44,763 nucleotides of DNA from positions 1 to 44,763 of the forward strand of contig CAYZYW010000003.1 in assembly GCA_964482665.1 (NCBI GenBank). The letters run 5' to 3'. Both the position numbers and the translations under genes were made by a program. The stretch is from Candidatus Woesearchaeota archaeon (GTDB taxonomy: Archaea; Nanobdellota; Nanobdellia; Pacearchaeales; GW2011-AR1). Of this stretch, positions 23,414 through 28,267 are shown in pieces (positions within the stretch are counted from its first letter, which is position 1; each line of letters begins with the position of its first letter). Under the pieces are notes generated by a model. That model ran no database searches. It was not told where the DNA came from and worked only from the letters and a program-made list of their open reading frames with translations.

Positions 23414-24847
23414 ATGGACTTTAGAAAAATATTCGATTATATTCCGGAGGTGGTGAAACCTGCAGAAAAAAATGTTGATTTTAAAACTAAACTTAAATGG
23501 ACTATCATTATTTTAGTTGCATTTTTTATATTATCTAATATTTCTCTTTTTGGACTTAGTGCAAATGCCATGGAGCGATTCGAGTATCTTGCAATAATTC
23601 TTGGTACAGATTTTGGAAGCATTATTTCATTGGGTATTGGACCAATTGTAATGGCTTCAATTATTTTACAGTTACTAATGGGTTCGCAAATTATTAATAT
23701 AGATACTTCAACAGCTGAGGGTAAAAAGTTTTATCAAGGTGTTCAAAAATTATTAGTTTTGTTTTTTATTGTTTTTGAGGCCGTCGTTTATGTTATGATG
23801 CAAGGCCTTCAGGCGATGCCTGGCTTTGCCAGTCTAGTTATTTTTCAGTTAATACTTGGTGGGTTAGCAATTTTTTATATGGATAAAGTTACAACAAATT
23901 GGGGATTTGGATCAGGTGTAAGTTTATTTATTGGTGCAGGTGTAAGTTTAAGATTATTCACAAGTGCATTTCAATTTGTAACAAATCAAGGTAAAAATTG
24001 CTTATTTGATTTTAAAGGAACTCCATGTTCGGGAAAGGTTTTGGTTTTGGTTCAATCTATAATTAATAAATATCCTACTGAGTTTATTTCAGCTCTTGCG
24101 GCTATTGTGGCGACAGTTGTTATTTTTATTGTTGTTGTATGGGCTCAATCATTAAAAGTTGAAATTCCGCTTTCTTTTGGACGAATTCGTGGCTATGCTA
24201 TGAAATGGCCATTATCATTTTTTTATGCCTCTGTTATTCCCGTTATTTTAACAGCTGCACTTATGGCAAATTTTCAATTATTTGGTGGATTAATTGAAAA
24301 TGCCGCTTCTCCATGTCTTGAGGGTGCATGCTCAGGTTTTGCGAGAATCGCTTCACATTTGGGATTTTTAGGACATTTTGTTAATGGACAAGCTGTTTCA
24401 GGTTTGTCATTTTGGATGGGCTCAAGTAATTTATTAGAGCTTTTTATTAGAGGTGGATTTATGTGGAAATATGCATTACAGGGTTTGACTCATATATTTT
24501 TCTTTATGTTGTTCTCAACTTTGTTTGCTGTGTTTTGGGTTAAGACGGCTGGAATGGATTCAAAGTCTCAGGCTCAAAAAATTGCAAGTTCAGGTTTGCA
24601 GGTTTCAGGGTTTAGACAGGATATTCGAATTTTAGAAAGTATACTTGATAGATATATTATGCCATTAACCGTTATGGGTGGCTTAGCGATTGGTTTACTA
24701 GCTTCATTAACAGATCTTTTAGGAGCATTAGTTTCAGGAACAGCAATCTTATTGGTAATTATGATTATGTTCCAGTTTTATCAGAACATTGCACAAAAAC
24801 ATATGACAGATATGAATCCAGCAATGAGAAAGTTTATGGGTGGATAG
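23414..24847 (+). CDS. secY: Preprotein translocase subunit SecY
   Basis: 477 aa, about 10 TM segments. IISLGIGPIVMASIILQLL (TM2 plug region). Sits downstream of L15. A TATA-like TTATAAAT lies at 23386-23393. Confidence 0.92.
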   Translation: MDFRKIFDYIPEVVKPAEKNVDFKTKLKWTIIILVAFFILSNISLFGLSANAMERFEYLAIILGTDFGSIISLGIGPIVMASIILQLLMGSQIINIDTSTAEGKKFYQGVQKLLVLFFIVFEAVVYVMMQGLQAMPGFASLVIFQLILGGLAIFYMDKVTTNWGFGSGVSLFIGAGVSLRLFTSAFQFVTNQGKNCLFDFKGTPCSGKVLVLVQSIINKYPTEFISALAAIVATVVIFIVVVWAQSLKVEIPLSFGRIRGYAMKWPLSFFYASVIPVILTAALMANFQLFGGLIENAASPCLEGACSGFARIASHLGFLGHFVNGQAVSGLSFWMGSSNLLELFIRGGFMWKYALQGLTHIFFFMLFSTLFAVFWVKTAGMDSKSQAQKIASSGLQVSGFRQDIRILESILDRYIMPLTVMGGLAIGLLASLTDLLGALVSGTAILLVIMIMFQFYQNIAQKHMTDMNPAMRKFMGG

Positions 24848-25930
24848 ATTTGAGAAGTTTTTGAATTGACATGAAATTGTTTCCAAGATTTACATAAGCA
24901 ATCCATCCTTGTAATATTTCTTTAAATTTTTCTTTAGATATCTTACCCTTATTAAATAATTCAATCTTTTTCCTAATGTTTCGTAAATTTCTTTTTCTCA
25001 ATAACCTTGAATAATAAAAATTTCTAAATCCGACAAAATCAACTCCTCGAGATAAATTCAATATCTTAGATTTGTCTGGATGAAGTTCAAGCCTTAATTT
25101 TTCTTTTAAAAAAATTTCAACTTGTTTTCTCCAAGTCTTAAGTTGTTTTTTTGAAGGATGTAATAAAACGAAATCATCAACATAGCGAATATAATATTTT
25201 GCTCTTAATTTATTTTTTATAAAATAATCTAATTCATTAAGATATATGTTTGCAAAAAATTGTGAAGTTAAATTTCCTAAAGGTAATCCTTTATTGTTAT
25301 CAAATCCCTGCTTACTTTTCAGGTTCGAGAGAGAGAGAGAGAGAGAGAGAGAGACGAATTACAAATATTCCCTATCGAGGATTTATTGTATCTCTCATTT
25401 TTTATTATAATTTTAATTAACTGTAACGTTTCTTGACACCTTATTTTTCTTTGTAACATCCTTAATAGAATTTTGTGGTCTATGTTTCGGAAATAATGTT
25501 TTACATCTGCCCTGAAACAATGCCCCGAAGAATGTAAATTCTTCGTAACTTTTAATTTGAATTTCTTAAGTCTTTGTAGTGCAAATAATGTTCCTTTGTG
25601 TTTTCTATTTGCACAATTATCACAAATAAATGTTTTATCAAAAATAGGTTCAATTATGTTACACAAGGCGTGATGAATAATTCTATCTCTAAAATCTGCT
25701 TTGGAAATTTTACGAGTCTTTGGGTCTCGTAAAATAAAAATTATCAAAGGCTTTGGTTTGTATGTTTGTTTTAATAATTCTTTCTGTAATTTGAAAAGAT
25801 TTTTTCGCGTATTTTTTTCAAATTCGATAACGTAGTTCTTTTTCGTTTTTCCTTTTCTTGCTTTAATCCAAGCTTTCGCTAAGTTATTCATTGCACATAT
25901 TTTAGGATAAAGATTTTTATGGGTTTTCAT
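24834..25930 (-). CDS. DGR reverse transcriptase, reading frame interrupted at a (TC)14 repeat
   Basis: N-terminal ORF 25930-25319 holds RT motifs 0-3 (NLAKAWIKARKGK, PKPLIIFILRDPKTRKISKADFRDRIIHHAL, CANRKHKGTLFAL, FRADVKHYFRNIDH). My translation of 25322-24834 in the -1 frame gives KGLPLGNLTSQFFANIYLNELD ([ILV]GxxxSQ, DGR-type motif 4), YIRYVDDFVLL (YxDD) and a thumb segment (GVDFVGFRN...LQGWIAYVN). The 3' end overlaps the secY stop by 14 nt. Confidence 0.8.
25327..25354. repeat. (GA)14 / (TC)14 dinucleotide microsatellite inside the RT gene
   Basis: Counted directly: 28 nt of perfect GA repeat on the plus strand. It encodes (SL)n in the RT frame and causes the frame break. Confidence 0.95.
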
Positions 25931-25954
25931 TTCAATGCTGTCCTGAAGATGGGC

Positions 25955-26036
25955 TATTCCAAGATTCGCGTTCCTATTGGAAGGATTCCTGTCACAATTC
26001 AGGTTCGCCCTACTCGAGTCAGCATTGAACCTCGCG
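25955..26036 (-). repeat. DGR template repeat (TR)
   Basis: 82 bp, non-coding, ending 24 nt upstream of the RT ATG. 70/82 identical to 26327-26408. All differences are at plus-strand T (minus-strand A) of this copy. Confidence 0.85.
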
Positions 26037-26279
26037 AATCAGATAGCCAATTTACCAATTCATAACGCAAAAGCGTTAACACCACAACTTCAATATTCAC
26101 CATAAGTTACTAATTGTTGTTGTTGAATTTAATGACTTGAAATAAATCTTAACAACGTGCTAGTAAATTGACGTGTAGTCCTTGTTTTATATTTCTTGTT
26201 CATGGAAATATAAAATTTCTCCAGGACAATGAATCAAATAAAAAATTGTTTAAAAATTTTGCGATGTCACTTCGCGACA

Positions 26280-26299
26280 AAAAAACAAATTTGTTTTTT
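26280..26299. repeat. Perfect 20-bp palindrome AAAAAACAAA|TTTGTTTTTT just 3' of the target-gene stop
   Basis: Read directly from the sequence. Flanked by TCGCGA at 26271-26276 and 26307-26312. It lies 4 nt downstream (minus sense) of the stop at 26303-26305. Confidence 0.8.
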
Positions 26300-26302
26300 A
26301 GA

Positions 26303-27180
26303 TTATTCGCGAACAATATAATCCCTTACCCCAAGATCCGCGTTCCTACCGGAAGGATACCAGTCACAACCCAGGTCCGCCCTACTCGAGTCAGCATCGA
26401 ACCACGCGCCACGTCCTGCTATTGGCGCCCAATAGTATAAATCTCCTTCTAGATCTTCTTTGTTCAGATTGTTGTTTGGAAACCCCTGTTCTGTTGGTGT
26501 ATCTATCCAGCTTTTTAATGAGATTCCCGGAGCTTTATTTTGTATTAATGTATTTTTTGTAATTTTTCTCTGCTTCCTGAAATCAGATTATCTTCAGAAT
26601 CAAGTTTAAAATCTCTTAAAACATATAAACCATCTTCTCTTTGCTCATAAAAATCTTCAGACCATTCAGCTCTCCAAGGAGATTTTACTCCGACAACATC
26701 AGAATAAATTGCTTCTATTTCTTTTATGTCCATTTTATGTCCTTGAGAATTATAAACTGATTCTCCGTTTAATCCACTATGGAGATATTTTAGAAATTTA
26801 TTCATCAAATTAACAAGTGGTGTTTTTCTTCCTCTTACGGAATTTAACTTTAAAGCGGTGTCTCGATTTATATTCCCAATAAAATATCTTTTCATTGAAT
26901 CACTTGAAGTATTCATAAAAGATTCTTCAAGACGTTTTCTTGCTTCTCTAATTCCATAATCTTTTTCAGAAACTCTTGCTGAATTAATATCCAAATCACC
27001 ATAACCTTGTGGTGTAATTTCTCCTGGCATAAAAATATATCCTTCTAAATCTTTTGGCTCTGTTGGAGTTTCAATTATTTGTTTAGATAAAATTGGGTTT
27101 GTTGGTGTTTCAATTACTTTGTAAACTTCTGGATTTAACATTCCTAAAGTTTGTTCGCTTACTTCGATTATCGGTGTCAT
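26303..27180 (-). CDS. DGR target protein, C-type-lectin/FGE-sulfatase-like fold with C-terminal VR; frame change between 26548 and 26587
   Basis: The 211-aa ORF (27180-26545) carries SPWRAEWSEDFY, like the GNVWEW..D.Y motif of FGE/CLec domains. The -1 frame is open from 26587 to the stop at 26303. It reads ...KSWIDTPTEQGFPNNNLNKEDLEGDLYYWAPIAGRGAWFDADSSRADLGCDWYPSGRNADLGVRDYIVRE* and contains the VR. It has no ATG of its own. Confidence 0.7.
26327..26408 (-). repeat. DGR variable repeat (VR)
   Basis: The 82-bp counterpart of the TR, in frame within the last ~35 codons of the target ORF. TR AAY/AGG codons appear here as GAT, GAC, GGT, TAT and TGG. Confidence 0.85.
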
Positions 27181-27724: not shown

Positions 27725-28267
27725 ATGGAAAAAGATCAACAAGAAGTAATGTTTAAACTTCAGATGTTTGAACAACAGATTAAAGGATTACAACAACAAC
27801 TACAAGCAGTTAGTCAGGGAATTGTGGAGATGCAATCATTATGTCGTGGACTTGATTTAATAAATGGGTCTGAAGGTAAGGAAATTATGGCTCAGATTGG
27901 ACGAGGAATTTTTGTTAAAGCTAAGATTTTATCTGACAATTTGACGGTGGATATTGGTGAGGGTAATTTTGTGAAAAAAAATGTTTCTGAAACAAAGGCT
28001 ATGATTGATAAACAAATTTTAAAATTAGAAGATGTTAAAACTGAACTTGAGGAGAATATGGAAAAAGTTGGAGAAGCTTTAACTCAAACTATGCATGGTG
28101 CTCAACAAAATCAATCACATTGTGTATGTGGAGATAATGCTGAATGCCCTGGAGATTGTGGCGATAATTCCGAATGTGAAGATGAGTCCGTAAGGGAAAT
28201 CTTGTCGGAAAAAAGCTCAAGTAAGAGTAAAAAGCTGGATGAAATGTTTGAAGAAGATAAAGAGTAA
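27725..28267 (+). CDS. pfdA: Prefoldin alpha subunit with Cys-rich acidic C-terminal tail
   Basis: Coiled-coil / beta-hairpin / coiled-coil layout (QMFEQQIKGLQQQLQ...GRGIFVKAKI...VDIGEGNFVKKNVSETKAMIDKQILKLE). The tail reads HCVCGDNAECPGDCGDNSECEDES. Confidence 0.75.
   Translation: MEKDQQEVMFKLQMFEQQIKGLQQQLQAVSQGIVEMQSLCRGLDLINGSEGKEIMAQIGRGIFVKAKILSDNLTVDIGEGNFVKKNVSETKAMIDKQILKLEDVKTELEENMEKVGEALTQTMHGAQQNQSHCVCGDNAECPGDCGDNSECEDESVREILSEKSSSKSKKLDEMFEEDKE

Follow-up and report, generated by a model that had tools for sequence, protein, structure and literature searches.

In the present study, we analysed a stretch of 44,763 nt, referred to below as the window, from the contig CAYZYW010000003.1 of a Candidatus Woesearchaeota archaeon, and found it to contain a cassette that is almost certainly a diversity-generating retroelement (DGR) of the nanoarchaeal/DPANN type. 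All parts of the cassette lie on the minus strand, in the order target gene with a C-terminal variable repeat (VR), RT-16 RNA, template repeat (TR) and a gene for a reverse transcriptase (RT) resembling the RT of the Bordetella phage BPP-1 (bRT). Both the RT gene and the target gene are frameshifted, and the cassette is very likely non-functional as assembled. Overall, we are most probably dealing with a chromosomal DPANN DGR that was assembled in its off state and in which the lesion of the RT gene is a likely reversible switch state. We take this lesion to be most likely a switch state rather than decay, because in the relatives of the element the length of the affected repeat tract varies, the tract is usually out of frame and both halves of the RT are under purifying selection. 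The TR/VR pair itself belongs to a kind of DGR that has been known since 2015; the surrounding architecture with a 5' RT-16 leader and without Avd or a 3' spacer appears to be new, as does the proposed microsatellite gate on the RT. The coordinates of all features are listed in Table 1.

The two copies of the repeat were re-extracted and compared base by base at an offset of 372 nt. The resulting alignment was gap-free, with 70 identities in 82 positions and 12 mismatches (25957, 25958, 25966, 25977, 25978, 25987, 25990, 25998, 25999, 26005, 26026 and 26032), and was identical to the one given in an earlier prediction made from the letters of the window. In all 12 cases, the RT-proximal copy carries a plus-strand T, i.e. 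a minus-strand A, which is replaced in the VR by G in nine cases and by T in three. Thus, 12 of the 24 TR adenines differ and none of the 58 other positions does; a hypergeometric calculation gives a probability of 3.3e-8 for finding all 12 mismatches at the 24 adenines. The confinement of the mismatches to template adenines, which was the core of the original prediction, is thereby confirmed, and no mismatch at a non-A template position appeared when the mismatches were tabulated by TR base. The same realignment bore out the claimed codon bias, with 6 of 7 AAY codons altered and 11 of the 12 changes at codon positions 1 or 2, and the sharp loss of homology on both sides of the pair, where the identity falls to background.

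In a repeat search, the TR/VR pair was the longest direct repeat of the region, and a blastn search of the entire window with the TR returned the VR copy with E = 3e-22 and neither a second VR nor a further TR copy. None of the possible substitutions of TR adenines creates a stop codon, and the 21 adenines upstream of the initiation of mutagenic homing (IMH) sequence allow for a theoretical repertoire of about 9e11 protein variants. The VR sequence proves past activity of the DGR. The interpretation of the repeats as the TR and VR of a DGR is upheld by the A-only mismatches, the adjacent RT, the location of the VR at the C-terminus of the target and the existence of at least 44 DPANN loci of like organisation.

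In nanoarchaeal DGRs, the IMH contains TGGGGT where the corresponding sequence of the TR, IMH*, has TGGAAT (Paul et al. 2015, PMC4372165). This short pair is present in the window, where the VR ends with CTTGGGGTA and the TR with CTTGGAATA, and the claimed absence of an IMH-like block therefore does not hold. The pair accounts for the changes at 25957 and 25958 (GGAAT in the TR, GGGGT in the VR). Since the same contrast at the 3' end, GAAT in the TR versus GGGT in the VR, is found family-wide in 45 of 54 related TR/VR pairs (from 44 related loci, including the pair of the window), these two changes are not the outcome of stochastic mutagenesis but either a fixed directional signal or the result of a protein-level constraint on a conserved G-V-R.

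Comparison of the 3' flanks of 45 loci revealed a GGAAT(A/G)GCY block that is conserved at or right after the TR end (window 25931-25961) and, 10-20 nt beyond it and before the RT start codon, YWRGGAYWTT as a second conserved element, which could function in ribosome binding or as an RNA element. In the window, the spacer and the TR end together form the family-conserved block GGAATAGCC...AGGA.

According to PMC4372165, the target gene of every DUSEL4 nanoarchaeal DGR contains a GRA-triloop hairpin. A perfect GC-containing stem within 45 nt after the VR was also found for 46 of the 54 VRs of the family, with a GAA loop in 28 of them. In the window, a hairpin remnant is left that consists of the left arm GTTCGC-GAA without a complementary right arm, and an AT-rich palindrome, which starts 13 nt past the VR, spans the stop codon and is predicted to fold, may serve as a substitute for the hairpin, as a terminator or as both. 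In many related loci, the GAA-loop hairpin is followed by CGC and a run of five to eight A (e.g. gcgcaaaaaatt), where the window has cgcgaataatctaaaaaac; this motif may be conserved C-terminal coding sequence or a terminator.

Restoration of the reading frame yields an RT of 364 aa, which matches RVT_1 at 5e-21, contains the motifs LGNLTSQ and YVDD and begins 24 nt downstream of the TR. Its relatives number more than 6,000; the best of them are 56-64% identical, and those named by source are from Nanoarchaeota or Pacearchaeota. Among proteins of known structure, the chain 8ub7_A (328 aa, represented in nine PDB entries) scored 156 bits with the single sequence and 205 bits (1.4e-59) with a family profile, compared to 65-105 bits for the best group II intron RT (105 for the family profile). 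Judging by its aligned residues, we take this chain to be bRT. The entries 8ub7-8ube, structures of the BPP-1 DGR ribonucleoprotein, presumably belong to the preprint of Handa et al. (10.1101/2023.10.23.563531). The window RT keeps every residue that is invariant among 13 homologues and differs from bRT by an insertion of about 30 aa exactly before G(I/L)P(I/L)G.LTSQ, at which the HMMER alignment breaks.

Scanning a single genome for each GTDB species gave 80 related loci, almost all of which are labelled as DPANN (Nanoarchaeota, Woesearchaeota, Pacearchaeota, Micrarchaeota and Aenigmatarchaeota). One of them, with an RT that is 44% identical to that of the window, lies on a contig of SCGC AAA011-G17 (L079), the genome of the first described archaeal DGRs (Paul et al. 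2015, PMC4372165). A simple blastn screen revealed for 44 loci a TR of 70-97 nt ending 15-113 nt (typically 20-50) before the RT start and one or two VRs located 200-530 nt or about 1.1-1.3 kb upstream, with all or nearly all mismatches at TR adenines. Because these 44 loci share their layout, the element of the window is a member of a large and uniform DPANN DGR family. Two VRs per TR, in paralogous targets about 0.8-1.3 kb apart, were observed at L010, L016, L025, L029, L030, L052, L055 and L079; the window has one VR.

Directly upstream of the TR, the window matches the Rfam model RT-16 over model positions 1-158 of 158 at 93.3 bits, where the gathering score is 50. Rfam searches of related loci (L001-L040) found RT-16 in 37 of 40. 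Where RT-16 and the RT gene share a strand, no more than about 0-4 nt separate the 3' end of RT-16 from the TR start, and all loci with both features mapped have RT-16 directly adjoining the TR at its 5' end. In six loci, RT-16 was found opposite to the RT strand and away from the 5' end of the RT gene; in each of them, RT-16 is followed by 86-94 nt that are a TR, with 9-23 A-only mismatches to a VR located 365-1126 nt upstream on that strand and one or two non-A mismatches in three of these loci. Since RT-16 on the opposite strand still precedes a TR, we conclude that it is coupled to the template and not to the RT gene.

The motifs RT-1 to RT-19 were described by Weinberg et al. 2017 as RNA motifs near RT genes, of which only RT-10 was tied to a DGR, as the Bordetella spacer; for the others, the authors speculated that they might belong to DGRs or retrons (PMC5737381). 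Among the papers searched, none links RT-16 to DGRs, and the position of RT-16 as the 5' neighbour of DGR template repeats appears to be undescribed so far. By analogy, RT-16 is inferred to be an RT-binding scaffold, with a terminal helix at which cDNA synthesis may come to its end. As RT-16 occupies the gap, there is no open reading frame (ORF) on the element strand between VR and RT, and no Avd homologue was found in or next to the cassette, the rest of the window not having been scanned exhaustively. A pairing of GGCUA(U) 5' of the TR with AAUAGCC 3' of the TR (6 bp, duplex of -12 kcal/mol in the window) was also considered but is not supported, since variants such as UGAC, UAAC and GACUA occur without compensation across 45 loci.

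The RT ORF of the window is not intact: its frame changes within the (GA)14 microsatellite, and the gene is thereby split into an N-terminal part of 203 aa and a C-terminal part of about 160 aa. Wrong-frame stops flank the tract on both sides, the N-terminal part ending with a TGA just after it and the frame of the C-terminal part being closed by a TAA just before it. Loss of one unit or gain of two would restore the RT of 364 aa. The tract is the only dinucleotide repeat of at least five units in the 44.8-kb window. Two sibling contigs, L084 (JGI) and L085 (Logan SRR5581654_12080), are 100% identical to the window over the cassette, and in L084 the tract has the same length and the RT is likewise frameshifted; L085 ends exactly at the start of (GA)14, at about 25325 of the window, which heterogeneity of the tract length among the reads could cause.

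Of the 114 closest full-length homologues, roughly one in four carries (ER)n runs in the loop just before the G(M/L)PLGNLTSQ motif, and in the DNA that was fetched these runs are encoded by pure in-frame (GA)11-15 tracts. Metagenome contigs were then scanned, blind to the reading frame, for (GA)10 or longer at 20-50 nt before a degenerate GNLTSQFF motif. The scan yielded 53 loci with tracts of 20-40 nt. Overall, pure (GA)10-20 microsatellites were seen in this loop in L086-L138 as well as in L002 and L081-L083. According to tblastn, 36 of the 48 loci with both RT halves are frameshifted and 12 are in frame; an ORF walk agreed independently, and both halves are stop-free at normal length in the shifted loci. 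The shifted fraction of 75% is near the two-thirds expected for a tract length that is random with respect to the frame. When the loci were clustered by their flanks, about 27 elements were OFF, 10 were ON and one was mixed, and five of nine multi-member clusters vary in tract length.

For a comparison of alleles, we considered loci whose 560-nt flanks are 100% identical and which differ in the number of repeat units only. L002 and L134 have 13 units and are in frame, and L128, with flanks identical to theirs, has 12 units and is shifted. Likewise, the tract of L083 measures 23 nt and is in frame, and that of L121, again with identical flanks, measures 37 nt and is shifted. Three further comparisons involve alleles that are all shifted: L102 and L127 (26 and 22 nt), L090 and L115 (40 and 34 nt), and L104 versus L122, L125 and L137 (25 and 27 nt). 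For the half of the RT downstream of the tract, dN/dS was 0.195 between OFF elements, 0.197 between OFF and ON elements and 0.22 between ON elements, values that are rough since dS is high. The shifted loci still possess VRs bearing 12-19 A-only changes. The tract-bearing RTs are diverse, with a median identity of 63% and a minimum of 34%, and belong mostly, but not solely, to the subfamily of the window RT. A search of viral contigs for (GA)10 or (TC)10 combined with the RT motif gave zero matches, which is consistent with a cellular DPANN family.

At the level of sequence, the behaviour of the tract in these relatives bears the signatures of slipped-strand phase variation, and we lean towards the view that the RT tract acts as a reversible on/off switch gating hypermutation. 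Among the papers searched, none reports slipped-strand switching of a DGR. An in-frame (AG)10 tract (QREREREP) was also observed in a Micrarchaeota metagenome-assembled genome (L038, 4407-4426), where it lies in another RT loop, between the KGT motif and KADIRHYF; repeat tracts are thus not restricted to one RT loop. An origin of the (TC)14 of the window by inversion of a (GA)n tract, or a rescue of the frame if the 36 nt that separate GAGAGA from (TC)n are flipped, was tried and rejected, as stops or the frameshift remain.

The second frameshift of the cassette lies in the target gene. Seven homologues of the target were found, three of which (P0122-P0124, 291-316 aa) are colinear with the two frames of the window when these are joined. 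One extra A in the A6 run or in the A5 run fuses the frames, and the restored junction, EKLQK followed by NTLIQNKAPGISL, matches EILDKNTLMKDKTPGISL of the homologues; sequence comparison thus identifies the lesion as a 1-nt deletion in one of these two runs. The codons of the target frame given in the original prediction are correct, but the VR frame is no free-standing gene and joins the upstream 211-aa ORF only with one added base in the A-run. The C-terminal part ends with ...WAPIAGRGAWFDADSSRADLGCDWYPSGRNADLGVRDYIVRE before the stop codon, all residues that are invariant among the target homologues are kept, and the VR encodes residues ~258-284, i.e. about 27 variable residues, of the restored protein of about 292 aa. 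The frameshift is identical in the JGI contig and in the separately assembled Logan contig. Since 41 of 44 VR ORFs of the family have at least 190 aa open upstream of the VR, a truncated target is unusual in the family, about 2-3 of the 44 being frameshifted. The A6 run is not distinctive among the 347 A or T runs of at least 6 nt in the window, and the idea that it is a designed tract was rejected for this reason.

No Pfam match was obtained for any of the eight members of the target family, even at E = 10, and a PDB sequence search returned only noise. An AlphaFold2 model of the target reached a pLDDT of 79.5 and a pTM of 0.77, with only one of five models being confident, and the top 31 Foldseek matches of this model were all formylglycine-generating enzyme (FGE) or EgtB, albeit as weak matches (E 0.03-0.5, TM ~0.3-0.39). 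Both have C-type-lectin-like folds of the sort that is typical of DGR targets, and the model hints at such a fold in the target protein.

In the mechanism that we propose, a transcript comprising RT-16 and the TR would be made and bound by the RT, with RT-16 as the scaffold, in analogy to the DGR of the Bordetella phage. Synthesis of the cDNA would start near the IMH* end of the TR, at GGAAUAGCC, and continue as far as the TR 5' end, at which the terminal helix of RT-16 starts. In this process, adenines would be miscopied, and the cDNA would replace the VR in an IMH-directed manner. Slippage of the (GA)n/(TC)n tract of the RT gene would toggle its frame and thereby gate hypermutation. In its most far-reaching form, which we put forward as tentative and somewhat doubtful, this proposal implies a selected switch by a hypervariable (GA)n/(TC)n tract in a surface loop of the RT, under which the mutator is silent in most cells and becomes active stochastically, and a 5' RT-16 leader that has replaced Avd and the 3' spacer, giving a retron-like topology of RNA, template and RT with possibly different priming and termination.

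Several observations weigh against a switchable DGR at this locus. The tract of the window reads (TC)n on the coding strand and lies in an extra loop insertion of about 90 nt, beside the usual tract position, where a remnant GAGAGA is left. In every relative that was found, the coding strand instead reads (GA)n, and a scan of the viral collection yielded no further (TC)n case. Among the sibling contigs, we found no variation of the cassette, neither in the VR nor in tract length. The canonical hairpin was not found in the window, as the 45 nt that follow the VR contain no perfectly paired GC stem closed by a loop of 3-4 nt. None of the 80 loci of the tract-free set is frameshifted, but these were chosen for contiguous matches and are a biased control. 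In addition, the roles of RT-16 in priming, termination and scaffolding are inferred, and the C-type-lectin assignment of the target is weak, given the above Foldseek E values and the single confident AlphaFold2 model. Finally, three defects coincide, namely the RT frameshift, the target frameshift and the loss of the hairpin, which fits incipient decay as well as a switch. Such decay would make the element a dying relic, i.e. a once-active DGR that is being pseudogenised and in which the lesions are irreversible and the tract is a mere mutational hotspot. This explanation would account for three independent defects in a cassette of 2.4 kb when the ORF pairs checked elsewhere are intact, for the rarity of target frameshifts in the family, for the atypical orientation of the tract with its ~90-nt loop insertion and for the sibling contigs without VR variation. 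We nevertheless consider it unlikely: the lesions are confined to repeat tracts, which are the most reversible sites, the out-of-frame RT halves of the relatives are stop-free and have a dN/dS of about 0.2, equal to that of the in-frame ones, and ON and OFF alleles with identical flanks coexist. Moreover, because all 58 non-A positions are identical between TR and VR and all family-invariant residues of RT and target are retained, the lesions are recent or reversible.

The element might also be active despite its frameshifts, if transcriptional slippage or ribosomal frameshifting on (TC)14 and A6 gave low amounts of full-length RT and target and the repeat tuned their level. About three quarters of the tract-bearing RT genes are out of frame yet under purifying selection, and a -1 slip on the A6 run would give exactly the homologous ...QK-NT... 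sequence. Polymerase slippage on long A-runs is known to rescue frameshifted genes in AT-rich endosymbionts. However, the context of the A-run (CAA AAA ATA) is unlike the canonical slippery heptamer X XXY YYZ, in-frame and out-of-frame alleles with identical flanks are what is expected for switching at the DNA level, and there is no direct evidence for such slippage on dinucleotide tracts in archaea, so that we regard this possibility as quite improbable. It is more improbable still that the DGR is in reality intact and that errors of sequencing or assembly in low-complexity tracts produced the frameshifts. Both lesions do lie in repeats, and the Logan contig stops exactly at the (GA) tract, where assemblers struggle. 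Against this, the JGI and Logan assemblies agree on the A6 lesion, and L084 has a (GA)14 tract as long as that of the window; the tract of 28 nt is far shorter than a read, and the window contains its many A/T runs of at least 6 nt without the inspected neighbouring ORFs being disrupted. As a consensus error, 36 shifted loci out of 48 over many samples and assemblers would be impossible. An ordinary duplication whose copies differ by chance or by base-specific damage or editing, i.e. no DGR at all, has nothing beyond the bare repeat in its favour and is refuted for practical purposes by the probability of the A-only mismatches (3.3e-8), by 3 of the 12 changes being A to T, which is impossible by adenine deamination, by the adjacent bRT-like RT and the IMH/IMH* pair, and by the recurrence of the architecture in at least 44 loci. 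A chromosomal DGR in its off state thus remains the reading that we prefer.

The window has a G+C content of 30%, and the neighbours of the cassette encode SecY, ribosomal proteins, an EMC3/TMCO1-like protein, prefoldin, IF-2B and SpoIIM. The locus is part of an archaeal (DPANN) chromosome and non-viral. The cassette is placed between the ribosomal-protein/secY cluster and the EMC3-like/prefoldin pair, i.e. in core housekeeping surroundings. The RT gene on the minus strand and secY on the plus strand are convergent and overlap by 14 nt (24834-24847), with the 3' end of the RT gene reaching over the stop region of secY. The adjacent ORF pairs inspected elsewhere in the window are separate, intact genes. 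The prefoldin-domain protein (window 27725-28267) has an unusual Cys/Asp-rich C-terminal extension (CVCGDNAECPGDCGDNSECEDE).

Table 1 Features of the DGR cassette, with positions counted from the first letter of the window.
Feature	Position	Strand	Basis
Target gene, N-terminal part, 211-aa ORF ending with TAA 26545-26547	26545..27180	-	ORF list; homologues P0122-P0124 read through the stop into the VR frame
Target frameshift site, A6 run 26553-26558 and A5 run 26563-26567 (coding strand)	26553..26567	-	Three-frame translation, homologue alignment
Target gene, C-terminal part, -1 frame, contains VR, stop TAA 26303-26305	26303..26552	-	Translation, homologue alignment
VR	26327..26408	-	70/82 identity to TR, 12 differences, all at TR adenines
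IMH TGGGGT (coding strand), 3' end of VR	26328..26333	-	Sequence; nanoarchaeal DGR motif (PMC4372165)
Interrupted AT-rich palindrome (TTCGCGA..AAAAAACAAA/TTTGTTTTTT..TCGCGAA)	26271..26313	-	Predicted stem
RT-16 RNA (Rfam RF03019), structured leader 5' of TR, 169 nt	26038..26206	-	93.3 bits, full-length model
TR, non-coding, 24 adenines, 3' IMH* TGGAAT at 25956-25961	25955..26036	-	Base-by-base alignment
TR-to-RT spacer, 24 nt (GCCCATCTTCAGGACAGCATTGAA)	25931..25954	-	Comparison of 3' flanks of 45 loci
RT, N-terminal part, 203-aa ORF, motifs 1-3, TGA just past the repeat tract	25319..25930	-	ORF list, homologue alignment
(GA)14 microsatellite, (TC)14 on the RT coding strand	25327..25354		RT frame changes here
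RT, C-terminal part (GLPLGNLTSQ, YVDD, thumb), other frame	24834..25326	-	RVT_1 match of the restored protein

Taken alone, the TR/VR pair adds one more DPANN DGR to thousands, and the surrounding anatomy is worth more. The orphan Rfam motif RT-16 gains a function and a genomic address by its place as a 5' leader in front of DGR templates. The sole mechanistic model of DGRs, that of the Bordetella phage, depends on Avd and a 3' spacer RNA, and a large DGR family exists without either; how cDNA is primed and where its synthesis stops in the RT-16 family is now a directly testable question. If the switch is real, a mutator would be under contingency control, which would amount to a two-tier bet-hedging with a stochastic switch acting on a targeted hypermutator, and surveys that score the activity or completeness of DGRs by assembled RT ORFs would systematically misjudge the tract-bearing elements.

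Compared to the nanoarchaeal DGRs of the DUSEL4 single-cell genomes (SCGC AAA011-G17 and others; PMC4372165) and to the DPANN/CPR DGRs of later surveys, the cassette of the window has the same RT family, a short TR just upstream of the RT, the same IMH TGGGGT and IMH* TGGAAT, no Avd homologue, a target without a recognisable domain and with a C-terminal VR, and a theoretical repertoire in the same range of 1e11-1e12 variants. It differs from them in the absence of a GRA-triloop hairpin and in the frameshifts of RT and target. The full-model RT-16 match of the window lies next to an RT gene, just as in the published description of RT-16 (RF03019, PMC5737381); there it is an orphan motif, and here it is the 5' neighbour of a DGR template.

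With the DGR of the Bordetella phage BPP-1, which has the order mtd-avd-TR-Sp-brt, the cassette shares the A-specific transfer from TR to VR, the RT class, the C-terminal VR and an IMH-type asymmetry at the 3' end. The differences concern the lack of avd, the insertion of about 30 aa in the RT and, above all, the RNA. In BPP-1, most of the essential RNA is a spacer of 140 nt on the 3' side of the TR, to which bRT and Avd bind and from which the priming adenosine comes. In the window, the structured RNA (RT-16, 169 nt) lies 5' of the TR, and the distance from TR to RT is only 24 nt; for the family it is about 25-35 nt. The TR of BPP-1 measures 134 nt, compared to 82 nt in the window. With retrons (msr-msd-RT), the cassette has in common the order structured RNA, template and RT and the lack of an accessory Avd. 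No evidence of branched msDNA or of a1/a2 inverted repeats was found at the window locus, the RT falls into the DGR clade and its product recodes a target gene, so that the likeness is one of topology only.

The repeat tract, finally, has its closest counterparts in phase variation by simple sequence repeats, such as (AG)12 in the Type III mod gene of Mycoplasma mycoides (PMC3498834) and (CT)n in oipA of Helicobacter pylori (PMC10564699). As in these genes, a pure dinucleotide tract lies within an ORF, the number of units varies between otherwise identical alleles, as seen in the relatives of the element, the frame toggles and wrong-frame stops are close by. In contrast to them, the host is a DPANN archaeon, and the gated gene codes for the mutator enzyme of a DGR rather than being a surface or restriction-modification gene.

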